Below, piece by piece: positions 1,504 through 60,730 of a stretch of DNA of 64,000 bases. Numbering within the stretch: position 1 is the first letter of the stretch; each line of letters starts with the position of its first letter. Where the stretch lies: positions 96,704,230 through 96,768,229 of the forward strand of contig NC_057718.1 in NCBI RefSeq assembly GCF_004010195.1, read 5' to 3'. This DNA comes from Chiloscyllium plagiosum (lineage: Eukaryota). The position numbers were made by a program, and so were the translations under genes. The notes under the pieces were generated by a model, which ran no database searches, was not told the origin of the DNA, and was given only the letters and a program-made list of their open reading frames with translations.

Positions 1504-1682
1504 GTTAAAAATCACACAACACCAGATTTAGTTCCAACAAGTTTATTTGGAAACACTAGCTTTCAGAGCTCCACAGTGCTCCGAAAGCTAGTGCTTCCAA
1601 ATAAACCTGTTGGACTATAACCTGGTGTTGTGTGATTTTTGATTTTCTCCACCCCAGTCCAATACCAGCTCCTCCAAATCAT
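1504..1682. mobile_element. Fold-back PLE-terminus element, family 2 (AGCT type), centre deleted
   Basis: aaaaatcacacaacaccag...ctggtgttgtgtgattttt inverted arms, gctccgaaagctagtg half-core; flanks atagatttctata/atagaattctgta resemble a decayed TSD. Confidence 0.8.
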
Positions 1683-1839
1683 AGAATTCTGTAATACACT
1701 GTGCGGTATGTATATATTATCCAAAATACTCTTACCATTGGTTAAAAGACAGCAGGTGAGCAACATCTCTCTCTTTAGGTCGCTGCTCAGGTTTTGTTAA
1801 AAAACTCTTTCACAACGCGGGCTTCACTTGTTAGGTCAG

Positions 1840-2235
1840 CATCACCCATCCCTGTTGAACATGGTGGTGAGCTGCCTTCTTAAATGGCTGCAGTCTGTCT
1901 GAAGTGTGTCAGTATACACACAGTGCTGTGAGGGAGGGAGTTCCAGGATTTTGACCAGCGTCTCTGACAGAACGCAGATAGATTTCCAAGTCATGATGGT
2001 GAGTGGCTTGGAAGGGAACCTACCAGTGTTGCTGTTCCCATGCATCTGCTGGCCTTTGTGGTAGAGGCCGTGGATTTGGAAACGGCTGCTGTAGGTGCCT
2101 TGGTGAGTTGCTGCAGTGCATCTTGGAAATGGCGTGCACTACTGTCACTATTATGCATCAGTGGTGGTGGAAGTGAATCTTGAAGGTGCTGGTGGGGTGC
2201 GAGTCAAGAGGTCTGCTTTGTCCTGGGTGGTGTGG
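1840..2235 (-). mobile_element. LINE family B (CR1/L2 group) 3' fragment
   Basis: Reverse complement matches part of the LINE at 44575-45300. Confidence 0.8.
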
Positions 2236-2330
2236 AGTCGAGAGTGTGGTGCTAGAAAAGCACAGCTGGTCAGGCAGCTTCCAAAGAACAGGAGAATCAA
2301 TGTTTCAGGCATAAGTCCTTCATCAGGAAT
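2236..2330 (-). mobile_element. PLE terminal repeat family 1 with decayed hammerhead motif
   Basis: Minus strand attcCTGATGAaggacttatgcctGAAAcattgattctcc. Confidence 0.75.
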
Positions 2331-2436
2331 GGTGTCAGGATATGCCAAAACATTGAATGTATCCAAGAGGCAGCTAGATATAGCATTTGGGACAAATGGG
2401 ATGAAAGGTTATGTGAAGAAAGCAGGATTAGGCTGT

Positions 2437-3155
2437 TGTTGTGAAGTTGAAGGTGTGTACTATACCTTTAAGAGAGAGTGAATGCTGTTCTGAACTGAAG
2501 ATTAGAAGCATCTGTGTCTATGACTTGATGGCAGCCCCAGAGTATGCACTGGAAAATTGAATATATACAACATTTCGCTGTGAAATGGATACCTGAATTT
2601 TGGTTGCTGTTTTGACCACATTTTGAATTTAACAAATAAGTTTATATTTTGCCCCAGGATACTAAAACCCAATCAAGTTTGGATTTAAAGTTTTGCCAAC
2701 ATCGAAACAATGAGACAATCCAATGTTGGAGCGGTGTAAAATGCGGACCTTTTGAAAATTGGTCAGAGAGTAACTGCCGTCGAAACAAAAATGCATGGAG
2801 AGCTAACATCTTGCTCTCTAAGAATTAGGAAACACTCTCTATCAAAGGTACCTTTTCATGTGAAACATACTCGCAGCTACAAGAAAGAAGACGACCCAGG
2901 GAGATCCTCAGCCAGAAGAAGCAAGACACAGAAGATGGCAGCCGCTGTGTGGTTTTGAAATTAAGTTGATGTAATTTTAATAAGTGTCTTATTGGCACAG
3001 CATATTGTGATAGAGTTAGAGGCAGATAATAAGCAGTAAAGAGAAACAGGGCTTAGAATTGTGAATAGTTGTTTAATGTTCATTTTTAAAGTTAAAAAAT
3101 AAATTGATGTTATTTTCTTTAAGTCACGGAATTCGGGAGTTCTCTGTCACTCATA
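2437..3155 (+). mobile_element. Possible solo LTR, 3'-truncated by CR1
   Basis: Abrupt TGT start, non-coding, AATAAA near 3098; no terminal CA, TSD or second copy seen. Confidence 0.35.
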
Positions 3156-3159
3156 TTGT

Positions 3160-3615
3160 GGGAGTTTGCTGAAGAAAGAGACCTTGGAGTGCAGGTTCAT
3201 AGCCCCTTGAAAGTGGAGTCACAGGTAGATAGGATAGTGAAGAAGGCTTTTGGTATGCTTTCCTTTATTGGTCAGAGTATTGAGGTCATGTTGCGGCTGT
3301 ACAGGACATTGATTAGGCCACTGTTGGAATATTGCGTGCAATTCTGGTCTCCTTCCTATCGGAAAGATGTTGTGAAACCTGAAAGGGTTCAGAAGAGATT
3401 TACAAGGATGTTGCCAGGGTTGGAGGATCTGAGCTACAGGGAGAGGCTGAACAGGCTGGGGCTGTTTTCCCTGGAACGTCGGATGCTGAGGGGTGACCTT
3501 ATAGAGGTTTTGCTGGCAGGTGGGACTAGATTGGATTGGGATATCTGGTCAGCATGGATGGGTTGGACCGAAGGGTCTGTTTCCATGCTGTACATCTCTA
3601 TGACTCTATGACTCT
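3160..3615 (+). mobile_element. CR1 LINE 3' fragment with internal deletion
   Basis: ERDLGVQVH...RPLLEYCVQFWSP...LRGDLIEV then jumps directly into the 3' UTR. Confidence 0.9.
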
Positions 3616-4544: not shown

Positions 4545-4750
4545 GAGAAAGTGAGGACTGCAAATGCTGGAGATCAGAGCTGAAAATGCGTTGCTGGAAA
4601 AGCGCAGCAGGTCAGGCAGCATCCAAGGAGCAGGAGAATCGACGTTTCGGGCATGAGCCCTTCCTCAGGAATCCCTGAAACATCGATTCTCCTGCTCCTT
4701 GGATGCTGCCTGACCTGCTGCGCTTTTCCAGCAACGCATTTTCAGCTCTG
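4545..4750. mobile_element. Fold-back PLE-terminus element, family 1
   Basis: ~76-bp inverted arms (4575-4651 / 4674-4750); TSD ctgtcaaactg at 4530-4540 and 4748-4758. Confidence 0.9.
4637..4672 (-). ncRNA. Minimal type-I hammerhead ribozyme motif
   Basis: attc CTGAGGA a GGGC tcat GCCC GAAA cg TC gatt. Confidence 0.7.
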
Positions 4751-8621: not shown

Positions 8622-9293
8622 CCTCCCCCCCATTTGTAAATGGGCAAATTTTTGAGGTGCTGCTGAACAAGATTCTCCATTTTATTCCCAAGTCTTTGAG
8701 AAGAATGGTAACATAAGCTTCCCTCACACCTTGAACATGACATATGACACGATAGCAATGGGTCTTCAATATGACATCACCACATCAGTCTCCAGTTATA
8801 CTGATGGGCTAAGGGTGCGTGCATTATGAGTTTGTTAAAGAGTCATTTGCAAATTTTTCAATGCATTTCAGGCAGTAAACAGGAAACGTTTGGGACTGAT
8901 TTACAACAATAATGGCACAAGGGAGAAAGTAAAGGCCCCATCACTGGGACCACAACTGATTGTGGCAGTGAGTTATGTTGGTAAAGGCGACTTCATCTGT
9001 GTATGTCCCTTCACTCCATTTATTGACTCTTTCTGAGCTTGCTTTAAGGACTAAAGGAGGATTCAGAGAGCTATTAAGTTTGGTACAGAGTCAAGGATAA
9101 TGGTCTAATAATCAGTTGTTCATCAGGAATGGATTACCTCTGTGGGTTGGTTTGTTTTTTTGTATTCATTCACAGGTTGAGGAAGTCACTGGCTCAGCAG
9201 CATTTGTTGCCCATCCCTAATTGCCCAGAGGGTAGTTAAGAGTCAACCACATTGCTGTGGGTCTGGGGTCACATGTAGGCCAGACCAGTAAAG

Positions 9294-9494
9294 TTAAAAA
9301 TCAGACAGTTCCAGGTTATGGTCCAACAGGTTTAGTTGGAAGAACTAACTTTCGGAGTGCTGCTCCCTCAACCACCTGATGAAGGAGAGCATTCTGAAAG
9401 CTAGTGCTTCCAAATAAACCTGTTGGACTATAACCTGGTGTTGTGTGAGTTTTAACTTGGTACACCCCAGTCCAACACCAGCATCCCCAAATCA
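9294..9494. mobile_element. Fold-back PLE-terminus element, family 2
   Basis: Inverted arms; 12-bp TSD agaccagtaaag at 9282-9293 and 9495-9506. Confidence 0.9.
9373..9406 (+). ncRNA. Minimal hammerhead ribozyme motif (AGCT type)
   Basis: cac CTGATGA a GGAG agca TTCT GAAA gc TA gtg; stem I cac/gtg, stem II paired with G-U wobbles. Confidence 0.65.
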
Positions 9495-9776
9495 AGACCA
9501 GTAAAGGACATTAGTGAACGAGATGGGTTTTTTCGACAGTCGATGCACGGTCATCATTAGGTCCTTAATTCCAGATGTTTATTGAATTCAAATTCCACCA
9601 TCTGCCATGGCAGGATTCAAACCCACATCCCAGACCATTATCTGGGTCTCTGAATTATCAGGCCAGTGATGATAGCACTAGGTCATCGCCTCCCTAGGTT
9701 TACATGTTATGAAGCAGAGGAAACCTTGTAGGCATAAGGCATTAAGCAGACTGAGTGGCAACATTATAGGGGGATG

Positions 9777-10020
9777 GGGGGTGTCTAGTGGCGTAGTAGT
9801 GGTGTCACTACCTCTGAGCCAGGAGGCATGGGCATATGTCCCATCTGCACTGAAGGGATGTGACAATATCTCTGAACAGGTTGATAAGAAGAATATCTGT
9901 GTTGGGAAATGGGAGTTCTTGCGGTGGTATCCCTACCTCTAAGTCAGGAGGTCTGGGTTCAGGTCTGACGCTGCCCTGAAGGTATGTAGTAGCATCTTTG
10001 AACAGATTAACTGGAAACTA
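9777..10020 (+). mobile_element. Short tRNA-like SINE family C, two tandem units
   Basis: Units end in catctctgaacaggttgat-like tail; same as 55400-55520 and 58306-58840. Confidence 0.6.
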
Positions 10021-10149
10021 TACATACGCAACAAATAGAATTCTTAAAGGTATAGTATACGCACAGCAACCTCTTCCATTCCAAAGTAAAGTTTATCTAT
10101 GTCCAGTACAGAGCCTGTGCATCTTTGTAATGTGTAAGTAATTTGATTC

Positions 10150-10625
10150 TTTTTATTCATTCATGTGATGTGGAAGTCACTGGCTGGGCCCAGCATTTAT
10201 TGCCCCTGTCCATGGTTGCCCTTGAGAAGGTGGTGGTGAGCTGCCTTCTTGAACTACTGCAGTCCACCTGCTGTGGGTTGACCCACAATGCTCCTAGGGA
10301 GGGAATTCCAGGAGTTTGACTCAGTGACAGTGAAGGAACTGCAATAGATTTCCAAGTCAGGATGGAGAGTGGTTTGGAGGGGTCCTTGAAGGTGGTGGTG
10401 TTCCCATATTTCTGCTGCTCTTGTCCTTCTAGGTGGAAGTAGTTGTGGGTTTGGAAGGTGAATTTCTGCTGTGCATCTTGCAGATAGTACACACCTGCTG
10501 CTACTGAGCGTCGGTGGTGGAGGGAATGGATGCTTAGGGATGTAATACCATCAAGCGAGGGCTGCATTGTCCTGGACAGTGTCAAGCTTCTTGAGTGTTG
10601 TAGGAGCTGCACCCATCCAGGCACG
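10150..10625 (-). mobile_element. LINE family B 3' end
   Basis: Reverse complement of 44815-45300 including the terminal atgaatgaataaaa. Confidence 0.85.
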
Positions 10626-11936
10626 TGGTGAGAAGGTCCAATCTCATGATGGTGACCATGGCTGCAGGAACTGCCAACTTTTCTCTGTTGCTCCTGTTTG
10701 TGCTCAGCATCACGTACAACTGACTGACCGTTCATGGGCTACACTTCCAAAAGGCCTTCCACAACTTGATTTGCAGAGCAGCACCAGTCCCTGATGAAGG
10801 GTCAAGGCTGAAATGTTGACTCTCTCGCTCCTCAGATGTTACCTGACCTGCTGTGCTTTGTCCAGTGCCACACTTTGTCAACTCTGACTTCTCCAGCATC
10901 TGCAGTCCTCACTTTCTCCTGGAGCAGCCCACTTCCTATTCCTCCTCCCCGACCACCCTGAGCAAATGTGTAATCCAGCAGGTAATCACCATGAACAGGT
11001 CAGGTGGAATAACACAATGTAAGGCAGGTCCCCAGAACTTCCTTCATGTGCTCTTCTTACCCTCAAAGCAATGTAAAAATATTCCATTCTCCCAGTTCCT
11101 CCATCTCTGTCTCATCTGGTCTGACAATACCAACTTCAACAAGGGGACCTCCAAAATGTCCACTTTCTTCCTCAACTCTAGGATTCCCCAGCACCGTAGT
11201 TGACAGGCCCCTCGGCTTGGTCTGACCCATCTCCTGCACTTCAGCCCTCACCCCTTCTCTTCCCGCCCACAACAGCGATTGGGTCCCCCATTGTCCTCAC
11301 CTACCATCCCATCAGCATTCATCCAGAGTCACATTAGCTGCCATTTCTGCAACCTCCAGTGAGATGCCACCATCAGATACATATTCCCTTCCCCATCCCT
11401 GTCAGCCTTCCTCAGGGACCATTCCCTCAGGGAACACCCTGGTCCATTTCTCCTTCACTTCCAACACCCCACGGCACCTTCCCCTGCAACTGCAGGAGCT
11501 CTAACACCTGTCTGTTTACCTCCTCCCTCCTCAGGATCCAAGGGTCCAAACACACCTTCCAGGCAAAGCAGCACTTTAACTGCACTTCCCACAATCCAGT
11601 CTACTGCATTGGCTGCTCACAATGTGGTCTCCTGGGTGACTGCTTCACAGAACATCTATGTTCTGTCTGTAAGTCAGACCCTGAGCTTCCAGTTGCCTGC
11701 CCCTTCAACTCCCCACACTGTTCCCTGGCCAACATCTCTGTCTCAGGCTTGCTGCAGTGTCCCAGTGAAGCTCAGTGCAAGCTGGAAGGACAACACCTCA
11801 TTTTCCACTTGGGAACACGACAGCCTTCTGGAATCAACATTGAGTTCAATGAGTTTAGGGCTTGAGACGCCCTTTCCAAGTTCTCCCCATCCCCACATAC
11901 CAGGCCTTGGCATCAAATGGGCTGTTACCGCACACT

Positions 11937-12013
11937 GGAAATGTGTTGCTGGAAAAGCGCAGCAGGTCAGGCAGCATCCAGGGAACAGGAGAATCGACGT
12001 TTCGGGCATAAGC
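11937..12013 (-). mobile_element. Young single-arm family-1 terminus insertion
   Basis: 9-bp TSD ccgcacact at 11928-11936 and 12014-12022. Confidence 0.8.
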
Positions 12014-12173
12014 CCGCACACTACCCATTGTCAGTCCCTAATAGTCCCCATGAGAAACTAATCATTCCCCCAGACTGACCTTTACCATTACTCTCTCTTT
12101 GGGTTCTAACTCCAATTAGTGTTTACTCTCTCACACCCCACATAAAAGAAAAATCCTTTTCCTCGCTCCCATC

Positions 12174-12212
12174 AGTTCTGAAGAAGGGTCACTGAACTCC
12201 GAAATGTTAACT
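12174..12212 (+). ncRNA. Decayed minimal hammerhead motif (family 3, AACGTT type)
   Basis: agtt CTGAAGA agggtcactgaactcc GAAA tg TT aact; stem I agtt/aact. Confidence 0.55.
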
Positions 12213-13856
12213 CTGATTTCACTCCACGGATGCTGCCGGACCTGCTGAGATTTTCCAGAAATTTCTTGTTTTGTTAAAAGTTGAGTTGAACTGTCATAGA
12301 CCTAATAATCTGCCAGTGGGTGTGCTGTTGACCTGCACAATAGAGTGGGGTCAATCTGAGTGTAAGGCAGCAGTGATGTCTCGATAGAGGGGGGAACTTG
12401 CATTGTTTAAAACCACAGGTCTCCAACCCATTATGTATCAGGCAGATACTGGTTAAAATTAGGGCCACCCCCATCCTAACATAGAGATTAGAACATTTGG
12501 AAAACACCCCAACCACAACGATGGGGATATTGCCAACTTTCTGTCCCAACCACAATGAAGGAAACACTTTTTAACTTAGTGTGATGAAATCCGAGACTGG
12601 TCTATAAAAGACAGGCTACACACAGGACGAAGAGGAAATATCATTCCTATGGCCTTGAAATCTCTGTTTATTTTGTGTGAGTTAATGCCTGCATTAAAAT
12701 AGCAGACAGATGAATATCATATGCATATGTTCAATAGCTTGCCCACTATTACTGCCAGGGGCACTTTCGAACTTTCAATCTTTTCAAGGGATATATTTGC
12801 ATGAAAATACTCAAGGGGAAATTACTCTTAAAAGTACATAATTACATTAATAAGGAATTTGACCGCAAAATGCCGTATTCCAAAAGGAAATCTCTTCCAA
12901 GATTTAAAGTTGGCCTTTGCCATCTACATCTAGCGTTACAACTCGCTTGTTGTGAAGCGATTGCATTCGGTCTGTGACAGGTATATACCTTGGGTTAGTG
13001 GTTAATTGTCTCGTTTAGCAGTGGGCAATTATAATCAGATGATGGTATGTTTGCAGACCAAACACATTTGCTCAGGTCTGTCAACAAAACCAGAGGAGGA
13101 ACTCTCAAACAGGAAATTCACAGGCAGAGCGATCTGGTGGGCAGGGCACAGCGAGATGAATCAACTGGTTGAGTGATTTTACAAACGAGAGTTCGTTTGC
13201 ACAAAGCTTTGATTCATTCAACAAGGAAAGGCCTCCTTGCAATGTCACCTCCTTTACTATTTTCACAGTCTCCAAAACTCGCAAGCCAAAAACACGTTCG
13301 GTGAATCATTACCATGGACAAGTTTCCAACCAGTGCTATTTTCAATGCTAAGTCAGCCTAGATTATTCCATTCATGACCTTATGCACTCAGGTGACTGGA
13401 CAGCAGTTTTGTACTGTTACCTCAGTGCTAACAAGCAACACCGGAGATGTTAATCATTCAGTACGTGCACTATTTTAGTGACAAATGTTAGACTAATTAA
13501 ATAAATTAATCATACTTCGCTTTTTTTTTAGATTCCACATCCTCTGGAATATTACAGATCCTTTGGCTAATCAATGGACAAACAAAATGGCCAAGGGAAT
13601 CACTGCCTTGTAGCCGTCAGTTGTTGCAAACATTGAGAGTCATCAGCCGACTGGTCGAATGTGGGCTTCAGATGGAGTATAAATGGGACTGTTTGTGCTC
13701 AGAGCAGCACTCCAAGTCAGGTTTCAAATGGCCCCATTATACTGCAGCTGGTTGTGTGACTCTGTCATCACCCTTGCACGAGATCAACATCAAACCTGGC
13801 ACACGGTTACACACAATGCCAAGTGTCTTATGAACAGAGAATGCTTTCCACCCACT

Positions 13857-15391
13857 CAGAATCATAGAATCCCGAACAGTGTGAAAACAGGCCATTTGGC
13901 CCAACAAGTCCACACTGACCCTCCAAAGAGTATCCCACCCAGAACCATCCCCCCTACTCTATTATTCCAAATTTCCCATGACGTGATTCACATGGACTTC
14001 AGTAAGGCATTCAACAAGGTTCCCCATGGGAGACTGGTTAGCAAGGTTAGATCTCATGGAATACCAGGAGAACTAGCCATTTGGATACAAAACTGGTTCA
14101 AAGGTAGAAGACAGAGGGTGGTGGTTCAGGGTTGTTTCTCAGACTGGAGGCTTGTGACCAGTGGAGTGCCACAAGGATCGATGCTGAGTCCACTGCTTTT
14201 CATCATTTATATAAATGATTTGGATGTGAACATAGGAGGTATAGTTAGTAAGTTTGCAGATGACACCAAAATTGGAGGTATCATGGACAGTGAAGAAGGT
14301 TACCTCAGATTACAACGGGATCTTGATTAGATGGGCCAATGGGCTGAGGAGAGGCAGATGGAGTTTAATTTGGATAAATGTGAGGTGCTGCATTTTGGGA
14401 AAACAAATCTTGCAGGACTTATACACTTAATGGCAAGGACCTAGGGAGTGTTGCTGAGCAAAGAGACCTTGGAGTGTAGGTTCATAGCTCCTTGAAAGTA
14501 AAGTCGCAGGTAGATAGAATAGTGAAGAAGGCATTTGGTATGCTTTTCTTTATTGGTCAGAGCATTGAGTACAGGAGTTGGGAGGTCATGTTGCAGCTGT
14601 ACAGGACATTGGTTAGGCTGCTTTTGGAATATTGCGGGCAATTCTGGTCTCCTTCCTATCGGAAGGGTATTGTTAAACTTGAAAAGATTCAGAAAAGATT
14701 TACAAGGATGTTGCCAGGGTTGAAGGGTTTGAGCTATAAAGAGAGGTTGAATAGGCTAGGGCTGTTTTCCCTGGAGTGTCGGAGGCTGAGGGGTGACCTT
14801 ATAGAGGTTTATAAAATCATGAGGGGTATGGATAGGGTAAACAGACAAGACCTTTTCCCTGGGGTGGAGGAGTCCAGAACTAGAGGGCATAGGTTTAGAG
14901 TGAGAGGGAAAAGATATAAAAAGGGCCTAACGGGCAACTTTTTCACACAGAGGGTGGTACGTGTATGGAATGAGCTACCAGAGGAAGTGGTGGAGGCTGG
15001 TACAATAACAACATTTAAAAGATATCTGGGTGGGTATATGAATAGGAAGGGTTTGGAGGGATATGAGTCAGGTGCTGGCAGGTGGGACTGGATTAGATTA
15101 GGATATCTGGTCGGTATGGACGAGTTGGACTGAAGGGTCTGTTTCTGTGCTATGCATCTCCATGATTAATTCACCTAACCTACACATCCCTGAACACAAT
15201 TTAGCATGGCCAATCCACCTAAGCTGCAAATCTTTGGACTGTGGGAGGAAACCAGAGCACCCGGAGGAAGCCCACGTAGACACGGGGAGAACGAGCAAAC
15301 TCCACACAGACAGTCGCCCGAGGCTGGGATCGAACCCGGGTCCCTTACACTTTGAGGCAGCAGTGCTAACCACTGAGCCACCGTGCCATCC
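13857..15391 (-). mobile_element. HE1 SINE split by a CR1 insertion (13857-13980 and 15165-15391)
   Basis: Tail and head halves are collinear across the CR1; ccatga at both junctions. Confidence 0.85.
13981..15164 (+). mobile_element. 5'-truncated CR1 LINE, reverse transcriptase to 3' UTR, disrupted
   Basis: MDFSKAFNKVPH, SGVPQGSMLSPLLF, FADDTK; in-frame stop near 14330 and a frameshift. Confidence 0.95.
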
Positions 15392-18780: not shown

Positions 18781-18884
18781 TGTTTTGGTTCTCAGAATCA
18801 CAAACAAACCTTGCAATGGCATGGGATAGGTCTGATCATTAAGCACATTTATGAAAAGCTTTCCTTTTCAGTTATCCTTGTATG

Positions 18885-19108
18885 AAAGTTGAAACTTTAT
18901 TGCTGGAACAGCACAGCAGGTCAGGCAGCATCCAGGGAACAGGAGATTCGACGTTTCGGGCACAGGCCCTTCTTCAGGAATTCCTGAAGAAGGGCCTGTG
19001 CCCGAAACGTCGAATCTCCTGTTCCCTGGATGCTGCCTGACCTGCTGTGCTGTTCCAGCAATAAAGTTTCAACTTTGATCTCCAGCATCTGCAGACCTCA
19101 CTTTCTCC
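18885..19108. mobile_element. Perfect fold-back PLE-terminus element, family 1
   Basis: Exact 96-bp arms 18885-18980 / 18981-19076 with no spacer, ~30-bp one-sided tail; 14-bp direct repeat tccttgtatgaaag at 18875-18888 and 19106-19119. Confidence 0.95.
18980..19015 (+). ncRNA. Intact minimal type-I hammerhead ribozyme motif (mirror copy on minus strand 18946-18981)
   Basis: attc CTGAAGA a GGGC ctgt GCCC GAAA cg TC gaat; 4-bp stem I, 4-bp stem II, predicted cleavage after GUC at 19011. Confidence 0.8.
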
Positions 19109-19647: not shown

Positions 19648-19802
19648 TGGAGAAAGTGAGGACTGCAGATGCTGGAGATCAGAGTCGAGGATTGTTGTGC
19701 TGGAAAAGCGCAGCAAGTCAGGCAGCAAGAGAATCAAGGTTCATCAGGTTCTGACAAAGGGCTTATGCCCAAAACCTTGATTCTCCTGCCATTCAGATGC
19801 TG
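19648..19802. mobile_element. Decayed family-1 fold-back element
   Basis: ggagaaagtgaggactgcagatgctgg tail and ctgacaaagggcttatgcccaaaacc decayed core. Confidence 0.7.
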
Positions 19803-20083
19803 TACATATCGTTGGATCTTGTCAAATAAGGCTCCATATCCACAGATGCCCCAATAGTCCTAGTGACACTGTCCAACTTACTAATATAAGTTGTACCTGA
19901 CTGTATTGCTCTCTTGTAATAAACTACTCCTTTCTTCAGACACAAACTTCTTTCGTTAAGACTCACCTATAGCTTCTCTCTGCCACCAAGTAGGTCCTTA
20001 GGTCAGATCAAAGGAAGGTGATGACGACAACAAACTACCCCAGACATAAGCTGGGAGTAGTTGGCAATGCAAAAACGTGCAAC

Positions 20084-20338
20084 AGATTCCCACTCCTGGA
20101 CTTGACAGATTCCCACTCGTGGACTTGAGAGATTCGCACTCTGGGACTTGAGAGACTCCCACTATGGGACTTGACAGATTCCCACTCCTGGACTTGATAG
20201 ATTTCCACTCCTGGACTTCATAGATTCCCACTCCTGGACTTCATAGATTCCCACTCCTGGACTTGACAGATTCCTACTCCTGGACTTGAGAGATTCCCAC
20301 TCCGGGACTTGACAGATTCCCACTCTGGGACTTGATAG
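20084..20338. repeat. 23-bp minisatellite, 11 copies
   Basis: Consensus agattcccactcctggacttgac, exact 23-bp period from 20084 to 20336, no spacers. Confidence 0.95.
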
Positions 20339-20509: not shown

Positions 20510-20725
20510 GTACAAACACTGTGGATGTTGGGAATCTGAAACAGACACAGAGAATGCTGGAGAAACTCAGCAGCTCTGGCAACATATGTGGGGAGAGAAA
20601 TAGAATTAATGTTTTGACTCCGGTATGACCGTTCTGTCAGGCTTGAAATGTTAGTCTGTTTCTCTCTCCTCACATGCTGCCAGACCTGCTGAGTTCTTCC
20701 AGCAATTTCTTCTGTTTGTTTTATT
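20510..20725. mobile_element. Older fold-back PLE-terminus element (family 3-like)
   Basis: tgctggagaaactcagcagctctggca ... tgccagacctgctgagttcttccagca inverted arms. Confidence 0.75.
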
Positions 20726-22087: not shown

Positions 22088-22296
22088 TTGATGATGTGGA
22101 CGTGCCAGTATTGGATTGATGTGGACAAAGTCAGAACACACATGACACCAAGCTATAGTCCAACAGGTTTATTTGAAATCACAAGCTTTCAGAGCACTGC
22201 TCCTTCCCCCAACAAAGGAGCAGCACTCCAAAAACTTGTGGTTTCAAATAAACCTGTTGGACCTCAACCTAGTGTAGTGTGACTTCTGACTTTGTC
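22088..22296. mobile_element. Fold-back PLE-terminus element, family 2
   Basis: ggacaaagtcagaa...ttctgactttgtcc arms; cacactta repeated at 22080-22087 and 22297-22304. Confidence 0.85.
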
Positions 22297-22834
22297 CACA
22301 CTTAAAAAGGTCTCCAACTTGTTAATTAAAAGTCAGTGCTTACAACTACTGCTGAAGTTTTAACAAGATGGTTTTCTTCAAGTGATTCAGAGCTACAGAT
22401 CAGCTGGATTACTTAACTGAAGTTGGGAGAAAAAAATAATAACATTATGTACACTTGTAATATTTGAAGGCTTTTAAGAGTTTAACTTCACAGTCTCCCT
22501 TCAGTTTTTATTTCCTTAACTAATTTCTGAGTTGCACTGGGCTTTATGGATATGTTTTAAACAGTACAATACTACTCCAGGTTGAATTTTAACAAACAGG
22601 AGAGTGCTGGTTTGCAAGAGGTATGGATAAAAGGATAGGAATTGTCAGTAAGTCAGGGAGAGAGCAGAAAGAAAAGTAAGTCAGGCACCAATGAAGGTTA
22701 TCCACTTATCACTGCTGTGAAGTGGTTTACCCGTGAGTAGTTTTGGGATTTTGGAATTCCCCTTTTGCAATCAGTTCACCCTCGAACACTGGGCTAATAC
22801 TGGAGAAAGATCAGCTAGGTATGGCATCATGTAA

Positions 22835-23879: not shown

Positions 23880-24960
23880 TCAGACACACTCTCATGCTCA
23901 CTCACACGCATCACCACACACTCCAGCGACACACTCACAGAAACAGCCACTATACACTTAAATGCAAAAAGACACTCACACCCACGCTGATAGATGACAG
24001 ACTAAACATACAGTCATAGGCGTGTACATACTCGTGGAAACATACATTACACACACACTCTCACACACATACAAACATACAGACTCTCTCACACACACAC
24101 TCTCACACTCATACAGACACACACAAACACACACTCTCTCTCTCTCGCATGTACACAAACACACTCTCTCAATCTCACACAGACGNNNNNNNNNNNNNNN
24201 NNNNNNNNNNNNNNNNNNNNNNNNNNNNNNNNNNNNNNNNNNNNNNNNNNNNNNNNNNNNNNNNNNNNNNNNNNNNNNNNNNNNNNNNNNNNNNNNNNNN
24301 NNNNNNNNNNNNNNNNNNNNNNNNNNNNNNNNNNNNNNNNNNNNNNNNNNNNNNNNNNNNNNNNNNNNNNNNNNNNNNNNNNNNNNNNNNNNNNNNNNNN
24401 NNNNNNNNNNNNNNNNNNNNNNNNNNNNNNNNNNNNNNNNNNNNNNNNNNNNNNNNNNNNNNNNNNNNNNNNNNNNNNNNNNNNNNNNNNNNNNNNNNNN
24501 NNNNNNNNNNNNNNNNNNNNNNNNNNNNNNNNNNNNNNNNNNNNNNNNNNNNNNNNNNNNNNNNNNNNNNNNNNNNNNNNNNNNNNNNNNNNNNNNNNNN
24601 NNNNNNNNNNNNNNNNNNNNNNNNNNNNNNNNNNNNNNNNNNNNNNNNNNNNNNNNNNNNNNNNNNNNNNNNNNNNTCACAAACACATGCACACACACTC
24701 TCTCTCTATCTCTCTCTCACACACACACACATGTCACAGGATCTCAGTCACACTCAGATGTAGTTAACATGAGTGCACACATACACAGCCAGTGTATTTG
24801 TGGACATGGACTCACAGCACACTTGCTCCCACACAGAAGGATATAGCACACTCTCACAGACACAAACACAGCACACACTCATTTACATTTCCACAAATAG
24901 AAACGTTCACAGATGTACTCACACACACCATGCATACATGCACACACACACACACACACA
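23880..24960. repeat. Degenerate (CA)n/(CT)n low-complexity tract spanning an assembly gap (24186-24676)
   Basis: CA/CT-rich sequence on both sides of the N run. Confidence 0.9.
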
Positions 24961-25104: not shown

Positions 25105-25285
25105 AAAAACTGCAGGTGCTGGAGATTTATGAGAAACATAAAAATGAAAGTCGCTGGAGAAACACAGCAGGTTTGGCAGCATCTGTGGAGAGAAATGTGA
25201 CACCTCATCAGGCACTTACTCTGTTTCTCTCTCCACAGATACTACCAGACCTGCTGAGCTTCTCCAGCAATCTCTGTTCTTGATG
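25105..25285. mobile_element. Fold-back PLE-terminus element (family 3-like), centre lost
   Basis: gctggagaaacacagcaggtttggcagcatctgtggagagaa ... tctctccacagatactaccagacctgctgagcttctccagc. Confidence 0.8.
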
Positions 25286-34168: not shown

Positions 34169-34634
34169 NNNNNNNNNNNNNNNNNNNNNNNNNNNNNNNN
34201 NNNNNNNNNNNNNNNNNNNNNNNNNNNNNNNNNNNNNNNNNNNNNNNNNNNNNNNNNNNNNNNNNNNNNNNNNNNNNNNNNNNNNNNNNNNNNNNNNNNN
34301 NNNNNNNNNNNNNNNNNNNNNNNNNNNNNNNNNNNNNNNNNNNNNNNNNNNNNNNNNNNNNNNNNNNNNNNNNNNNNNNNNNNNNNNNNNNNNNNNNNNN
34401 NNNNNNNNNNNNNNNNNNNNNNNNNNNNNNNNNNNNNNNNNNNNNNNNNNNNNNNNNNNNNNNNNNNNNNNNNNNNNNNNNNNNNNNNNNNNNNNNNNNN
34501 NNNNNNNNNNNNNNNNNNNNNNNNNNNNNNNNNNNNNNNNNNNNNNNNNNNNNNNNNNNNNNNNNNNNNNNNNNNNNNNNNNNNNNNNNNNNNNNNNNNN
34601 NNNNNNNNNNNNNNNNNNNNNNNNNNNNNNNNNN

Positions 34635-44139: not shown

Positions 44140-44500
44140 TGCCCTGAGGGAAGGAATTCCAGGATTTTGACCCAGTGACAGTGAAAGAACGGCGATACAT
44201 TTCCAAGTCAGGACAGTGAGTGACTTGGAGGGGAACTTGAAGTGGATGGTGTTCCCATGTAACTGCTGCCCTTGTCCTTCTAGATGGAAGTAGTCATTGG
44301 TTTGGAAGGTACTGCCTGAGGATCTTTGGTGAATTTCTACAGTGGATCTTGTAGGTGGTAAACACTGCTGCTACTGAGCATTGGTGGTGGAGGGACTAGA
44401 TGCATACGGATGTGGTCCCAATGCTTTTTCCTGGATAGTGTCAAGCTTCTTGAGAGTTGTTGGGGCTGCACCCATCCAGCCAAGTGGGGAGTATTCCATC
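44140..44500 (-). mobile_element. LINE family B fragment
   Basis: Diverged reverse complement of 44790-45150. Confidence 0.85.
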
Positions 44501-44574
44501 GCATTTCAGTTAGATGTGATTCCATGATTGGACAGTTCTTGCTAAACAATCCCAATTGTTCTAGGTATTGCGTT

Positions 44575-45300
44575 ACCAATCTAACTACTGCCCCTTGGCA
44601 TTCAATGATGTTACCATCACTGAAATTCCCACTATCAACATCCTCGGGCTATTATTGACCAGAAACTTAACTAGACTCATTACATAAACACAGCGCCTAC
44701 AAAAGCAGGTCAGAAGCTAGGAATACTGCAGCAAGTAACTCACTCCCTGACTCCTCGAAGCCTGTCCACCAAGGCACAAGTCAGGAGTGTGATGGAATAT
44801 TCTCCACTTGCCTGGATGGGTGCAGCCAAAACAACACTCAAGAAGCTTGACACCATCCAGGACAAAGCAGCCCGCTCGATTGGCACCACATCCACAAGTA
44901 TCCACTCCCTCCACCACTGATGCTTAGTAGCAGCAGTGTGTACCACCTACAAGATGCACTGTAGAAATTCACCAAAGATCCTCAGACACCACTTTCCAAA
45001 CCCATGACCACTTCCATCAAGAAGGACAAGGGCAGAAGGTACATGGGAACACCACCACCTTCAGGTTCCCTCCAAGCCCCTCACCATCCTGACTTGGAAA
45101 TATATTGCTGTTCCTTCACTGCCGCTGGGTCAAGATCCTGGAATTCCCTCCCTAAGGGCATTGTGGGTCAACCCACAGCAGGAGGACTGCAGCGATTCAA
45201 GAAGGCAGCTCACCCCCACCTTCTCAAGGGGCAACTAGGGACGGGCAATAAATGCTGGGCCCAGCCAGTAACACCCACATCCCACAAAATGAATAATTTT
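44575..45300 (+). mobile_element. LINE family B (CR1/L2 group) ORF2 C-terminus and 3' tail
   Basis: KAGQKLGILQQVTHSLTPRSLSTKAQVRSVMEYSPLAWMGAAKTTLKKLDTIQDKAARSIG; tail gggcaataaatgctgggcccagccag...atgaataa. Confidence 0.88.
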
Positions 45301-47445: not shown

Positions 47446-47879
47446 GTCAGGAACTGAGTGGCTTAGGATTAGCCCAAGGACTGAAGTGGCTGTGACTGTA
47501 ATGAATGTATACATGAGGAATTGTATTAATTATATTGACTCTTCCATTACCCTTTCACCAAGATCTTGTTCTACACTAAAAGAGCTATCATTGGTGTTTC
47601 TCCATCAGACACAAAAACACTGCTTGTGGCAAGATCCACGATATGGTGATAGATCAACCACAATCACCAATTTAGTATGCCAGAGGACAAGCCTGATTTC
47701 TATGTGAGGTCAAATTCTGACTGAAACAGAAATTGTTGGAGAAACTCAGCAGGTCTGGCAGCATGTTAGGCGCGAGAAAGCAGAGCTAACGTTGTTGGAG
47801 AGCAGAGTGGAAATTCGTTGAGGTGGGCACTCTTGGAGGAGATGTGGCACTGAGTTAAACATGAAGCAAAAAAAAAACA

Positions 47880-48035
47880 AAGACATGCAGGCACCGGGAA
47901 ATCAGAAACAAAAACAGAAACTGTAAAACAGAAGGAGGGTCACTGGACCCAAAACGTTAACCCTGCTTTCTCTCTCCTCAGAGGCTGCCAATCTTGCTGA
48001 GTTTATCCAGCGATTTCTGGTTTTGGTTCTGAATT
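47880..48035. mobile_element. Family-3 PLE terminus remnant
   Basis: gggtcactggacccaaaacgttaac partial hammerhead core. Confidence 0.65.
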
Positions 48036-49309: not shown

Positions 49310-50081
49310 AGAGAGAAGGGAAAATCAGTGCCTTGTATTTGTGGGCAGGGAGCTGGGGATCCTACTGGATGAGCCAGGGTGGAGATGGAACATCCTCTTT
49401 CTCAGGACCAACAGAGGATGCCACAACCCCAGGCCATATCCACCAGGTCTGAGGCTTCCATCTGAGGCAGTGCACTCATAGGAGTAGGAAGAAGGTCACT
49501 CTACCAGGCCACATGCCACCATTTTCTCTCCAATGCCCCACCCTCACTCTCTCTCTGATACTGTACCCTTCATCCACCCAGGCTCATGTTCTACCACTCT
49601 CATTATTGCCTGCAACATTTTTCATCACTGACCCCTCACGCATCACAAACCCCAACAGTACTGATCCTCTGCGCTCAAGATTAGAGTGTTGCTGGAAAAG
49701 CACAGCAGGTCAATCAGCATCCAAGGAGCAGGAAAATCGATATTTCAGGATTGAAGGGCTCCTGCCCGAAATGTTGATTCTCCTACTCCTCGGATGCTGC
49801 CTGACCTGCTGTGCTTTGCCAGCACCACTCTAATCTTGACTCTAATTTCCAGCATCTGCAGTCCTCACTTTCGCCTGATCCTCTGCGCTGTCCACTCACT
49901 CACTAGTGACAGCCCCCGACCCACCAAAAACAGCTGTGGCATCCACTTCCATCTCACTTTATACCTGCTTTTCCCTCAGTACCAACAGGCCTACAATAGG
50001 GCAGACAGAGTCAAGATGGGAGGTGGGCTGCCTGACATTGGGCACCTCACACCCCTCCCATCCTGTCTCGGAATACCCTGA
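49310..50081 (+). pseudogene. Decayed Myb/SANT-like (NAIF1/MSANTD-type, PIF/Harbinger-associated) two-exon gene remnant
   Basis: FVGRELGILLDEPGWRWNILF resembles the Myb/SANT-like first helix; after acceptor ttttccctcag (49979) the frame reads YQQAYNRADRVKMGGGLPDIGHLTP, resembling the TGGG motif; frameshifted. Confidence 0.55.
49676..49874. mobile_element. Fold-back PLE-terminus element, family 1
   Basis: caagattagagtg...cactctaatcttg arms; perfect 15-bp TSD ctgatcctctgcgct at 49661-49675 and 49875-49889. Confidence 0.92.
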
Positions 50082-51264: not shown

Positions 51265-51445
51265 AGAGACAAGCAGGAGGCTGGAAGAAAACAGCAAACA
51301 TCAGGAGGTGGAGAAGTCAACGTTTCGGGTGTAACCCTTCTTCACAACAACGCTGTGAGCTCCTCAGCCTTCCAGCTCTTTGGCCACACGATGTACCCTC
51401 CTGCTTGTCCACCTTGGATTCCAGCAACTGCAGTTTTTTTTTTGT
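51265..51445. mobile_element. PLE-terminus fold-back, family 4; second partial copy 51530-51600
   Basis: Minus TGAAGA a GGGT tac ACCC GAAA cg TT gac at 51316-51344. Confidence 0.65.
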
Positions 51446-51954
51446 CTCTGATAAGGGTTCTCAGAGGCTGGCATATGTCAGATGCCGATCTCCATGAACA
51501 TGGGATGCATGTGGCTAGTGCCCATGGTAGACAGGCAGGAGGCTGGAAGCCAGGCAGCATCATGGGGTGCAGAAGTCAACGTTTTGGGTGTAACCTTTAC
51601 GTGAGATGTTGCTGTCCAACATGGAGGTTCTTCACAAACATCAGCGAAGTCAACAAGAACTCGTTCTGACATCCATGCGGTGAATTCTCAGACTCCCTGG
51701 TTAGTCTTGCACATTAATGAGGCACGGTGTACAGTTTATAAGGTCATTAACAAACAATAACCCCCCCCCCCCCCCCCCCCAACCCCGGTAAGCAATTCAT
51801 CATGGCCCAGAGAGAATCCATGCTGGGAACTTAGTTCCAAGATGCAACAAATTGCCCCCAGCCTCGCTGTACACCTCATGTGGTTCTACCAGATTTCTCA
51901 CCATAGCCCACAGAGGTCAGGCCCCTATAAGATTCTGCCCTCTTTTGTTCTTAA

Positions 51955-52440: not shown

Positions 52441-53167
52441 TTCAGCAGTGTTGAATTTTGACACAAGGCAGTCTGAAGACTCAATATGCAGATGGCTTGT
52501 AATATTACAGACTGATTGTCATCAATCTATCGCAGTCAAAATATTTTTTAAAAATACCATTTTATTGTAATATTGAGGTCGAACATTGTTAATTATTTAT
52601 GAGGGAATTCAACAGACATGGCGTATTCCAAAACCCTGATGTTTCGCAAGCTTTCCTAATGACAGTGTGACAAAGCTTCAAGACGGTCTGAATGGATCCG
52701 AATGTGATTGATGGCTTTTTAATAACTGACAATGATTCGGAGTCGAAGTTATTATAACATTCTCACTGATGCAATACTTTGTCAGATGAAGCAATAGGAA
52801 TGAATTTCCCAATGTCGGTTTGTACTCCAGCTTGTGAAGCAGATCTTTTTCCATTACATTCTGACTAGACACTCAGGAAAAATCTGCAGCTGTTCTATTC
52901 CATGGAACATATGTAAAAGATGTTTTTCAAAACTGTAAAAATGGGGTGAATTTAGTGCAGACGTGATGGATATCTTTCTCTCTGAATTTTAACACCAGTT
53001 GTGTCCCATACCTACGAGACACAGAATGCTGAGTTTATGACTGCAATTACATTTTGACTTCAGTTATTTCATACAGACACAAGTAGTCCTTCTACTGTTT
53101 GAAATAACTCAATGACATTGCCGCTGATCTGAATCTTAAAACCCGCCTCAGTTCTGTGAGCCTTAAT

Positions 53168-53295
53168 ACCCTGATGAAGACAGAGCAGCGTCTGAAAGCT
53201 TGTGATTTCAAATGAACCTGTCGGACTATACCCTAGTGTTGTGTGACTTCTGACCTTGTCCAGCCCCGTCCAACACCGGCACGTCCACATCATGA
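53168..53295 (+). mobile_element. Family-2 PLE terminus, single arm
   Basis: cCTGATGAagacagagcagcgtctGAAAgcTTgtg. Confidence 0.75.
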
Positions 53296-54212: not shown

Positions 54213-54369
54213 TGACTTGGAGGTGCCGGTGTTGGACTGGGGTGGTCAAAGTTACAAATCACACAACACCAGATTATAGTCCAACAGGTTGATTTGGAGG
54301 CACTAGCTTTCGGAGCGTCACTCCCTCATCAGGTAGTTGGACTAAACCTGGTGTTGTGTGATTTTTAAC
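54213..54369. mobile_element. Fold-back PLE-terminus element, family 2
   Basis: 12-bp TSD tcagtgaatata at 54201-54212 and 54370-54381. Confidence 0.9.
54301..54335 (-). ncRNA. Intact minimal hammerhead motif (AGCT type)
   Basis: tac CTGATGA g GGAG tgacg CTCC GAAA gc TA gtg. Confidence 0.75.
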
Positions 54370-56690: not shown

Positions 56691-57342
56691 TGGATGTAGG
56701 TTTGCTCGCTGAGCTGGAAGGTTCATTTCCAGATGTTTCGTTACCCTACTAGGTAACATCTTCAGTGGGCCTCAGGTGAAGCAATGCTGAACATTCCTAC
56801 TTTCTATTTATATGCTTGGGTTTCTTTGGATTGGTAATGTTATTTCCTGTGGTGATGTTATTTCCTGTGGTGAAGTCACTTCCTGTTCCTTTTCTCAGGG
56901 GATGGTAGATGAGGTCTAACTCGATGTGTTTGTTGATAGAGTTTTGATTGGAATGCCATGCTTCTAGGAATTCTCATCCATGTTTTTGTTTGGCTTGTCC
57001 TAGGATGGATGTGTTGTCCCAGTCGAGGTGGTGTCCTTCGTCATCCATATGTGAGGATACTAGTGACAGAGGGTCATGTCTTTAGTTAGACCCCATCTAC
57101 CATCCCCTGAGTAAAGGTACAGGAAGTGACTTCACCACAGGAAATAACATCACCACAGGAAATTACGTCACCAACCCAAACATATAAACAGAAAGCAGGA
57201 ATGTTCAGCATTCCTTCGCCTGAGGCCCACTGAAGATGTTACCTAGTAAGTAACGAAACATCTGGAAATGAACCTTGCAGCTCAGCAAGCAAACCTACAT
57301 CCAAAGCCTCAACCTGAGCTACAAATCTTCTCAAAACTCACT
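56691..57342 (-). mobile_element. Short PLE of a different clade (Poseidon/Penelope-like), family 5, with ~220-bp inverted termini
   Basis: Arms 56691-56920 / 57085-57303; internal minus frame HMDDEGHHLDWDNTSILGQAKQKHG*EFLEAWHSNQNSINK (GIY-YIG C-terminus). Confidence 0.85.
57227..57265 (+). ncRNA. Minimal hammerhead motif, family 5 (mirror copy on minus strand 56729-56768)
   Basis: cca CTGAAGA t GTTAC ctagtaa GTAAC GAAA ca TC tgg; stem I cca/tgg, 5-bp stem II. Confidence 0.75.
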
Positions 57343-58305
57343 ATGGCCAATTCACCCAACCTGCACATCTTTGGACTGTGGGAGGAAACCCACACAGTCA
57401 CAGGGAAAATGTGCAAACTCCACACAGACAGTCGTCCAAGGCCAGCATTGAACCCCAAGTCCCTGGTGCTGTGAGGCAGCAGTGCTAACCACTGAGCTAC
57501 CATGCTGCCCATTAGGTTCTGTGGGTCCTAGTGTGACTGATGAGCCCAATCCTACAGCCACATCTCTGACATTAATTGTAACAATAGTGACACTGAATAG
57601 TGGGGCTAAGTGATTTGCATCTGTTTCTAATTACCTCTTTGTGTGTTTAACCAACACGAGAATATACCAGTAAACAACATGTGAATTGACGTTAATTTAT
57701 ATTCCACCATAATGACCTCCACAATACTCAGTTCGATTGGAATTGCATCCTTGGTGGTGGCTAAGTGAGTGTAGACTCAATAGGAATGAGGGGTTACTGG
57801 GGATCTGTCATGACCAGGCCGTGAGAAATGTTCCTCAATCATTATGGCTCTAGATGGGATATCCCAAATGGCTAAGTTCCTGGGTGGGGAAGGACAAACT
57901 GATTCAACTTTCTTTAATCATACGGCCCTCTGTTGTTTGCACCAATGTTAATTTAAAAAGGATTCTCTTCACAGTGGACATTTTTCTCCCTGACCCATAT
58001 TGACTCATACTTTAATAAGACTCAGTTTAACCAGGCTTTGTTGAATTAACACCAAAGAGTAAGTTTATTAGTTACGAAATACAAGGAGAATTAATTATAT
58101 AAAACGTACACACACAGATTAGAAATAAGAGGTGAATGCAAAAAGATAAAAGTTTTTAAAATCCTGTAAAGTCTGTGAATTGTTCGCAGTGGTCCAAATC
58201 AACACCCAGGTTTAACCAATCAAGCACAATGAGCATCAATCAGTTGCCAGCCTCAACTAATTGGGCACAGAACAATTAAACAGTCAACACAGCACTCCTT
58301 TCCCT

Positions 58306-58840
58306 GGCCCTCTTGTGGTGCAGTGGTAGTTACCCTACCTCTGGACTGAGAGGCCTGTGTTCAAGTCAAACCTGCTCTGGAGGTATGTAAAAACATCTCT
58401 GAACAGGTTGATAAGAAAAATTAGGTTAAGTGCTCGAAAGAGAGCAGTGTCCCTTCCTCTGAGCCAAGGTGTGAGTTGAATTATTGAACTTGATTGAAAA
58501 GCATTCTTGGAGTATCTTAGATTAAAGGATATTCAAGATAATAAGAGTATTAAATTAAAAGAATCAACAGGGTAAATTGAGAAAAGTTATTTTCAAAAAT
58601 TGAACACTCAAAAAGGGGCTCTTGTTGTGCAGTGGTAGTGCCCATACCTTTGGACCAGGAGTCCTGGGTCCAAATCCCACTTTCTTCCATTGGATTGTAA
58701 CAACATCACTGAACAGGTTGATTAGAGAAAATCTTAAATTTTCCCCATAGTGATAGTCTCACTGTTTCTGAGCGAGGAGTCCTGAGTTCAAGTTTCACCA
58801 GTCTCCAGAGACATATAACAACAGGTTGATTACAAAATAT
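58306..58840 (+). mobile_element. Cluster of about 4 short tRNA-like SINE family C units
   Basis: tggtgcagtggtag A-box-like, gttcaagtc B-box-like, aacaggttgatt tail in each full unit. Confidence 0.6.
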
Positions 58841-59310
58841 CTTTAACACAGAATGTTATCTGATATTTGTCCTCTTTTCCTATTATTACCTCTTTTTGTC
58901 TTATACCCATTACCCTATGTTTCATTCCTCTCCTAATCAGCATCTCATTACTTTCAACTCTCCTCCTTGCCATCTGTCTCTGTACTTTTCTGCTTGTCTC
59001 TGTTTCTACTTATTGGATTTCACGGGGGATAGGAACAGTGAGGTGGAATGAGGTGTGACTGGACTGTAAATTGCTGTTTAAATATAATTTTTTCCAGCTC
59101 TAACAAAGAACCATGAGGTTTGAAATGTTAGCGGAGATAAAGGAATGTAGAATTCGGAATACCAGCTGATAGGCCATGACCTTATGGAATGATGAAGTGA
59201 ATTGAAGGACCAAATGTCCTAACTCATGTTTGTACGTCTATTCCAATGCTCAAAACAATTAACATTTAATAATAGAGAATACAAACCATAGGAAGAAGGG
59301 GTAGCAGAAT

Positions 59311-59415
59311 CATTCTGAGGAAGGGTCACTTGACCTGAAATGTTAAAACTCTGATTTCTCTCCTCAGATGCTGTCAGACCTGTTGAGCTTTTCCAGCAAT
59401 TTCTGGTTTCATTTT
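59311..59415 (+). mobile_element. Family-3 PLE terminus with decayed hammerhead
   Basis: att CTGAGGA a GGGTCA ct TGACCT GAAA tg TT aa. Confidence 0.7.
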
Positions 59416-59629
59416 CAATAATAGGGACTGCACATGATAAATCCTCCCATGTAAAACACTCTGCGAGATGGGACAAGGATGATAGAAATCGACCTTCTGC
59501 TACCTTTGCCAATCTGAGAAAGTTGAAGACCTTTGAACCCGTCACTTGTTTGTTTATTAATTTTGGATTCATTCGAAGTAAGTCTTTGCTGACGAGGATA
59601 TATTCTGAAAACCCTGGGATGCAACTATC

Positions 59630-60730
59630 TCCTGCTCCATGCTGGAAGGACAAGGACAGCAGATGCATGGGAGAGCTACCACCCCTGTGTTTCTCTCTAA
59701 GTCAGTCAGTGTTGTGACCTGGAAGTATATCTGTGTGTAAAGCATTCCTTCAGCATCACTGAATCAAGATAGTGAAAATCCCTTCCTCAACAGCATGGTG
59801 GATGTCTCAGCACCGCATGGATTGCTATGATCCATGAACGTAGCCCAACACAACCTTCACAAGGTTGGCTATGGATGGGCTGAAAATGTGTTGCTGGAAA
59901 AGCGCAGCAGGTCAGACAGCATCCAGGGAACAGGAGAATCGACGTTTCGGGCATGAGCCCTTCTTCAGGAATGAGGAAAGCGTGTCCAGCAGGCTAAGAT
60001 AAAAGGTAGGGAGGAGGGACTTGGGGGAGGAGCGTTGGAAATGCGATAGGTGGAAGGAGGTCAAGTTGAGGGTGAAAGGCCGGAGCGGGGGTGGGGGCGG
60101 ACAGGTCAGGAAAAAGATTNNNNNNNNNNNNNNNNNNNNNNNNNNNNNNNNNNNNNNNNNNNNNNNNNNNNNNNNNNNNNNNNNNNNNNNNNNNNNNNNN
60201 NNNNNNNNNNNNNNNNNNNNNNNNNNNNNNNNNNNNNNNNNNNNNNNNNNNNNNNNNNNNNNNNNNNNNNNNNNNNNNNNNNNNNNNNNNNNNNNNNNNN
60301 NNNNNNNNNNNNNNNNNNNNNNNNNNNNNNNNNNNNNNNNNNNNNNNNNNNNNNNNNNNNNNNNNNNNNNNNNNNNNNNNNNNNNNNNNNNNNNNNNNNN
60401 NNNNNNNNNNNNNNNNNNNNNNNNNNNNNNNNNNNNNNNNNNNNNNNNGGAGTGGTCTTTTCGGAACGCTGATAGGGGAGGGGAGGGAAATATATATATC
60501 TGGTGGTGGGGTCCGTTTGGAGGTGGCGGAAATGACGACGGATGATATGATGTATATGGAGGTTGGTGGGGTGGTAGGTGAGGACCAGCGGGATTCTGTC
60601 CTGGTGGCGATTGGAGGGGCGGGGCTCAAGGGCGGAGGAGCGGGAAGTGGAGGAGATGCGGTGGAGGGCTATGGATGGGTAATCAATGATGGCCCAGCCA
60701 GGGGCACCCACATCCTGTGAAAGAATAACT
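59630..60730 (+). mobile_element. LINE family B 3' end split by a PLE
   Basis: Tail resumes taatcaatgatggcccagccagg after the insertion. Confidence 0.75.
59880..60666 (-). mobile_element. Young 5'-truncated Neptune-like PLE spanning a gap
   Basis: 13-bp TSD ggctatggatggg at 59867-59879 and 60667-60679; DRIPLVLTYHPTNLHIHHIIRRHFRHLQTDP; intact hammerhead core on minus strand 59937-59972. Confidence 0.9.

Follow-up and report, generated by a model that had tools for sequence, protein, structure and literature searches.

Minimal type-I hammerhead ribozymes of Penelope-like elements (PLEs) form a class described in 2014 (Cervera and De la Pena 2014, PMC4209133). Their core has one extra base between positions 9 and 10.1, a G10.1-C11.1 pair and palindromic positions 15.2-16.2; they occur as several covarying families per genome, mostly as single truncated copies and with opposite-strand pairs, and as dimers they are weakly active in vitro. 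About 4,000 were counted per genome in the coelacanth and about 9,000 in Xenopus, and that study lists no cartilaginous fish, either in its Table S1 or in the set of 56 motifs shown in its Fig. S3. We analysed a window of 64,000 nt from the shark Chiloscyllium plagiosum (NC_057718.1, 96,704,230-96,768,229, forward strand), to which all motif counts below refer and in which the same core, covarying families, truncated copies and opposite-strand pairs are found. An earlier note on this DNA had recognized these putative ribozymes from the sequence; the finding is correct but of the class described in 2014, and every structural trait that it listed is already in that description.

Three other systems are close. 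The Poseidon element PAc of Anolis is intact and has been tested biochemically, and its cleavage depends on protein (PMC11167929); the corresponding shark lineage is a broken 3′ end that has lost the 15.2-16.2 pair. Neptune-clade PLEs share with the window a CxxC linker between the reverse transcriptase (RT) and GIY-YIG domains, and head-to-head inverted copies with palindromic junctions are likewise reported for PLEs (PMC8557442, PMC3846280), whereas many insertions in the window have shrunk to less than 200 nt of terminus. Finally, non-LTR (long terminal repeat) retrozymes carry type-I hammerheads related to those of PLE pseudo-LTRs and are reported in one chondrichthyan genome (bioRxiv 10.64898/2026.07.22.740005), but they are defined by tandem units, and none of the ten tandem-repeat entries in the window overlaps a hammerhead motif.

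We consider it very probable, judging from the sequence, that the motifs are minimal type-I hammerheads of PLE pseudo-LTRs, which would have worked as dimers, probably with the assistance of protein, in past master elements and which now persist as inert copies. With equally high confidence, we distinguish a Neptune-type lineage (A, with C), a Poseidon-type lineage (D) and a lineage of unproven parent (B), all represented by 5′-truncated, often folded-back 3′ ends.

Three lineages of hammerhead motifs with covarying stems

A plain search of the window for the two core boxes (CTGANGA...GAAA) gave 20 strings. A descriptor combining the stems with the NUH triplet matched 11 times, where 300 dinucleotide shuffles averaged 0.023, and the published descriptor (Fig. 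S7, PMC4209133) matched seven times, against 0.01 in 400 shuffles; the core thus recurs far above chance. The seven matches (9376+, 12178+, 18977-, 18984+, 54332-, 56765- and 57230+) are spread over A, B, C and D, and six of the 13 core-intact copies fail this descriptor on stem pairing. BLAST with eight seed termini gave 39 element termini, seven being the references themselves and about four being fold-back arms that align doubtfully. Both boxes are intact in 13 termini and mutated in six, and the 5′ box is absent from 20. The earlier note had put the cores at roughly 15-20, some intact and many decayed; the actual set is 39 termini, 13 of them with intact boxes.

The features are as follows, in window coordinates:

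1507-1640, both strands: head-to-head pair of lineage B; arms begin in stem II, 5′ core box absent
2295-2330, - strand: lineage A motif that keeps both boxes but has decayed to CA at 15.2-16.2
4575-4750, both strands: head-to-head pair of lineage A; intact core 4637-4672 (-), other arm begins in stem II
9373-9406, + strand: lineage B motif with stem I CAC/GTG, AGCT, triplet CUA and H17 at 9403, within the inverted pair 9291-9458
9413-9433, + strand: AATAAA at 9413-9418, with poly(A) addition behind 9430 and behind 9433 in RNA reads of family members
10787-10821, + strand: subfamily A2 motif, boxes intact, stems damaged
10982-11859, + strand: broken Neptune-type PLE open reading frame (ORF; thumb, CxxC linker, GIY-YIG); the C motif at 12178 follows after 319 nt
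11930-12022, - strand: lineage A terminus beginning in stem II; it sits in reverse orientation within the 3′ untranslated region (UTR) of the C element and is flanked by a 7-bp direct repeat
12174-12212, + strand: subfamily C motif with AGTT/AACT as stem I and GUU as triplet
18882-19079, both strands: palindrome of 198 nt, almost perfect, in which two intact motifs of lineage A stand back to back at 18946-18981 (-) and 18980-19015 (+)
19649-19788, both strands: decayed inverted pair of lineage A
20549-20710, both strands: decayed inverted pair of subfamily C
22091-22300, both strands: inverted pair of subfamily B2 without the 5′ core box
25153-25276, both strands: old inverted pair of subfamily C, tail only
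34630-37295: broken Neptune-type PLE with an inverted 5′-truncated copy; ORF remnants 34821-35217 (-) and 35160-36813 plus 37116-37190 (+, split by a short interspersed element, SINE)
34661 (-) and 37227-37295 (+): A termini of this PLE, respectively a motif in which G12 has become A and a truncated terminus
47722-48023, both strands: decayed inverted pair of subfamily C
49675-49876, both strands: inverted pair of lineage A, joined in stem II
51315-51349, - strand: subfamily A3 motif carrying G in place of C3, with GGGT/ACCC as stem II; another A3 terminus, decayed, lies at 51529-51598
53167-53205, + strand: subfamily B2 motif with intact boxes, damaged stems and CUU as triplet
54301-54335, - strand: intact lineage B motif, stem II GGAGT/GCTCC
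56691-57345: inverted pair of lineage D, end of a Poseidon-type element; ORF remnants 56719-57081 (-) and 57086-57243 (+)
56729-56768 (-) and 57227-57265 (+): lineage D motifs, both with CA at 15.2-16.2
59311-59348, + strand: subfamily C motif, boxes intact, stem I down to two pairs
59937-59972, - strand: intact lineage A motif, ending a pyrimidine-rich 3′ UTR behind the Neptune-type ORF remnant 60449-60744 (-), with an assembly gap between

A, A2 and C share a downstream tail (71-74% identity by BLAST), A3 aligns with them over the motif, and the tails of B and B2 are 80% alike; only A/C, B and D are mutually unalignable by BLAST. The independent lineages are three, with about seven subfamilies, and not the four or five families with otherwise different flanks that had been proposed. 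The four stem I pairings quoted at 18980, 9373, 12174 and 57227 are all present. The first of these (ATTC/GAAT), however, is restricted to the palindrome 18882-19079: nine other A copies read GATT, the usual stem I of this lineage, with a U-U mismatch after two pairs. As the pair adjoining C3, A and B have C-G, C has U-A and D has A-U. In stem II, the first pair is G-C or G-U throughout (11 and five, respectively, of the 16 parsed core-bearing copies), and the remainder diverges between lineages. The extra base after A9, between 9 and 10.1, is found in 16 of 16 parsed copies, the parse having presupposed one. The stem II GGGTCA/TGACCT of the earlier note would, at 59315, leave a loop of 2 nt, and five pairs with a 4-nt loop fit instead.

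Stem III had been described as palindromic in the intact copies. This holds strictly for seven of the 13 core-intact copies, which have CG or GC at 15.2-16.2; three have TG and three CA, both D copies (triplet AUC) among the latter. The 6-mers AACGTT and AAGCTT overstate the helix, as they include A14 and H17, which in standard hammerhead numbering do not belong to helix III.

The earlier note had proposed covariation as a check, and the stems do covary between lineages. Stem pairs were counted by a coordinate parse; MAFFT had misaligned D and B. With one copy per lineage, 20 of 21 cells are paired, a value attained in 11 of 10,000 shuffles; the corresponding figures are 39/49 cells for seven subfamily representatives (1/10,000 shuffles) and 92/112 for 16 copies (0/10,000), the shuffles in all cases ignoring the kinship of the copies. 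In the multiple alignment of the copies, where pairs were counted only at columns in register and stem II was mostly uncountable, all three pairs of stem I vary on both sides (0/500 shuffles), and controls slid out of register are 13-50% paired versus 88% in the true register.

Further searches were negative. A covariance model built from 11 copies found no further family, the best 19 of its 25 matches being known copies; no hammerhead family was among the 12 Rfam matches at E up to 5; and pattern scans of metagenome contigs for A and B gave no match. Rfam matches to miRNA families sit on the inverted pairs, far below gathering scores, and were rejected.

Carrier elements and state of the copies

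The whale-shark protein P0001 has RVT_1 and GIY-YIG domains with a CxxC linker between them. It matches the window at 10982-11859 (+), 34821-35217 (-), 35160-37190 (+) and 60449-60744 (-), and behind each match, on the same strand, lies a C or A terminus (12178, 34661, 37214 and 59968, respectively), the A and C motifs lying 160-320 nt past the ORF match. The CxxC linker is also read in the window translation near 36480-36510. The frame upstream of D is matched by six shark or eukaryote proteins, and zebra-shark P0152 aligns with 56719-57081 (E 2.5e-43) through the D motif itself. This frame reads through the core to a stop codon in loop II, and an ATG at A9 starts a second frame, for which a comparison made via the relatives of P0152 gives weak alignments to the N-termini of two full-length ones, P0162 and P0160 (E 0.40 and 2.6). 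Such a layout of ORF end and second ORF start is described for the anole element (PMC11167929). P0152 reads E-T-S over GAAA-N-N-U-C, which would fit an ancestral CG at 15.2-16.2 of D, and it has no CxxC linker upstream of GIY-YIG. The clade labels, Neptune for A/C and Penelope/Poseidon for D, are based on such motifs and not on a tree. Pfam applied to 15 ORF remnants of the window gave two RVT_1 matches only, both CR1-like, the PLE remnants being too broken. The proposal of minimal type-I hammerheads on PLE termini is thus borne out for A, C and D by the descriptor matches, the covarying stems and the RT/GIY-YIG remnants upstream; the PLE link of B is putative.

Separately, several shark gene models (P0153-P0156, with a CUE domain, a WW-binding protein and others) end in the endonuclease tail of the D element (window 56719-57345), through either exonisation or an annotation artefact.

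Twenty-six of the 39 termini are arms of 13 head-to-head pairs. Ten inverted pairs fold as long hairpins with 63-97% of their bases paired, and the motif region is absorbed into the hairpin in the four structures inspected. Between 1507 and 54370, the fold-back junctions of the inverted pairs tend toward stem II or stem I of the motif. The arms of the palindrome 18882-19079 are 99% complementary and only 89% like other A copies; this may be a recent fold-back insertion, a product of gene conversion or an assembly artefact. The terminus at 11930-12022 is a PLE end inserted into the 3′ UTR of another PLE, with a 7-bp target duplication.

The RNA templates of these copies were probably uncut, because 36 of the 39 termini extend 5′ beyond the cut site; 12 begin in stem II and none at the cut. 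The template was likewise uncut in the assay of the anole element (PMC11167929). Moreover, the core of lineage A is not significantly better kept than its tail (mismatches 8/95 versus 67/549, p=0.39). Among 23 copies, TG or CA now stands at C11.1-G12 in 13 and at 15.2-16.2 in nine, while A13-A14 is intact in 21, and on these grounds the copies look neutrally decayed, with CpG hot spots within the core. 'Ribozymes' in this window are accordingly predicted motifs, most of whose copies are truncated or decayed.

The surroundings are repeat-rich animal DNA: self-repeated sequence or gap makes up 37% of the window, the CpG observed/expected ratio is 0.27, and CR1-like RT pieces and SINE-like repeats, whose class names we presume, are plentiful. 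Among named proteins, the nearest belong to carpet sharks (Rhincodon, Stegostoma, Hemiscyllium and Chiloscyllium). No host exon was found among the 124 of 146 non-repeat ORFs that were scanned; one gave a sub-threshold DUF436 match. At 20082-20335 a 23-bp unit is repeated 11 times in tandem (89% matches). A separate repeat family (44422-44869 and 10157-10738) has inverted arms of 82 nt placed 284 nt apart, and the hammerhead core was not found there. A weak U6 match at 14650-14707 (25 bits, gathering 44), within a CR1-like piece, is probably due to chance. Assembly gaps (about 24190-24670, 34170-34633, 60121-60448 and 62580-62900; 1,606 N in total) fall within PLE copies in two cases.

RNA reads and competing explanations

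Four read runs were aligned to 9280-12300 at 85% likeness, and their reads represent family members, not assigned to loci. The contigs of run X11 have summed depths of 8.8 million on the A tail, 5.7 million on B and 1,500-196,000 on the ORF, against a baseline of four near-identical contigs at depth 12-22. These depths point to termini numbering some 100,000, as an order of magnitude, in each lineage and far exceeding the ORFs, although depth is no copy number. Run X16 gave no aligned read. No RNA run was among the indexed runs listed as containing the sequence, and run X15 is tied to it by bearing the species label of DNA runs that contain half of its words. In run X15 (single-cell poly(A), 7,371 reads aligned), 1,528 reads have poly(A) loose ends behind 9430 (654 reads) or 9433 (874), 12-15 nt after AATAAA and 27-30 nt past the cut site, where the DNA is not A-rich. 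AATAAA itself starts 10 nt past H17 in five of nine B termini. The depth of X15 is strand-biased (1160.6 versus 302), about 1,000 of its reads extend past the cut on the upstream side, to positions 14-16 nt from it, and 406 share G12 changed to A, an inactivating change. Because the loci of its reads are unassigned and a cut product of 27-30 nt would probably be lost from such a run, X15 neither shows nor excludes cleavage.

Under the interpretation that we favour, active master elements would have been transcribed as partial tandems in which two motifs swap strands, the palindromic A15.1-N-N-U16.1 forming a helix III of 4 bp, as in the dimer model reviewed in PMC6765202. The RNA would then be cut after NUH, probably aided by the protein of the element. 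Reverse transcription would begin on uncut RNA, within the tail that follows the motif on its 3′ side, and may often halt in the motif stems and fold back, yielding head-to-head pairs. The inserted copies would be inert, with decay most rapid at the CpGs C11.1-G12 and 15.2-16.2, the covariation being a trace of selection on the past masters and not on the copies in the window.

Several observations weigh against this interpretation. The usual stem I of lineage A, with its U-U mismatch after two pairs, misses the published descriptor, a difference from the motifs of PMC4209133. Covariation cannot be tested properly on as few as three independent lineages. Nearest-neighbour energies, in a dimer model that ignores core contacts, do not favour the strand-swapped dimer in any of six copies (best -14.5 versus a dimer minimum of -19.7 kcal/mol). 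Read ends do not pile up at any cut site, in a weak test on a single run of single-cell poly(A) reads. The motif of D overlaps coding sequence, and no ORF was matched upstream of nine B termini, whose copies stop at or near the motif.

This last point leads to an alternative that we regard as improbable: lineage B alone would be a non-autonomous hammerhead retroelement, of retrozyme or SINE-like type, and not the end of an autonomous PLE. The retrozymes of one chondrichthyan (bioRxiv 10.64898/2026.07.22.740005) lend it some plausibility. Yet only about 10-20 nt of B sequence are known upstream of the core, which gives the ORF search low power, no tandem array contains a motif, and B shows the same head-to-head pairs and in-stem truncation as A and C.

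A second alternative, which we hold to be quite unlikely, is that the PLE motif is kept for a role other than cleavage: it would serve as a signal for folding or protein binding where the ORF starts and reverse transcription takes place, or it would be under the overlapping coding constraint in D. The reading frame that crosses the D core to the loop II stop, the A9 frame with its weak N-terminal alignments and the mostly uncut templates of the window are consistent with it, as is the anole element, in which catalytic mutants leave insertion unaffected and no read ends at the cut site (PMC11167929). In the same element, however, protein-assisted cleavage depends on C3-G8, and the A and C motifs, although they lie well past the ORF match, have every catalytic position in common with D.

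We may also wonder whether dispersed copies, chiefly of B, have been adopted by the host as 3′-end devices, in which a poly(A) signal and tail could be removed by a hammerhead 27-30 nt upstream. An intact-core copy ending a host transcript would pair in trans with another copy, and the tail would be cut off. The spacing of AATAAA, the poly(A) ends at 9430 and 9433 and the strand bias of X15 would agree with this, and there is a precedent in Clec2, where a hammerhead lies in the 3′ UTR upstream of the poly(A) signal (PMC6765202). But a poly(A) signal is expected at the 3′ end of a retroelement anyway, the reads that extend upstream of the cut and those with an inactivated G12 speak against tail removal, no host exon was found in the 124 scanned ORFs, and the core is no better conserved than the tail in lineage A, which this comparison covers; such adoption therefore seems very improbable. 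Chance matches in repeat-rich DNA are practically refuted by the stem pairing, the D protein match through the motif and the descriptor counts: copies of one repeat are not independent, so that shuffles overstate significance, but three unalignable lineages each have a full core with different, paired stems at a known PLE position.

Density and significance of the shark hammerheads

With seven motifs per 62 kb, or 112 per Mb, in a window that was picked for density and may overstate it, the window density is far above published vertebrate counts, the totals for coelacanth and Xenopus amounting to roughly 1-6 per Mb at their genome sizes. A high density taken alone, with hundreds of thousands of minimal hammerhead motifs in carpet-shark genomes, 10-100 times any counted vertebrate, is likely. 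The wider claim, which adds to it B copies acting as a ribozyme-gated 3′-end system, appears highly doubtful, the host function of B being its improbable part. In the accessible literature we found no shark catalogue of these hammerheads, and Repbase, Dfam or subscription papers may list the families; the whale-shark genome paper names Penelope among the superfamilies present, and the 2026 preprint screened one chondrichthyan for tandem forms.

Sharks thereby join the animals with PLE minimal hammerheads, and a gap in Rfam can be filled. The U-U mismatch in stem I and the CUA and CUU triplets provide natural variants for RNA biology, and the fold-back junctions, together with the many truncated copies, could map the points at which PLE reverse transcription stalls and folds back. 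The importance would be greater only if cleavage turned out to control the poly(A) sites of lineage B within host transcripts.

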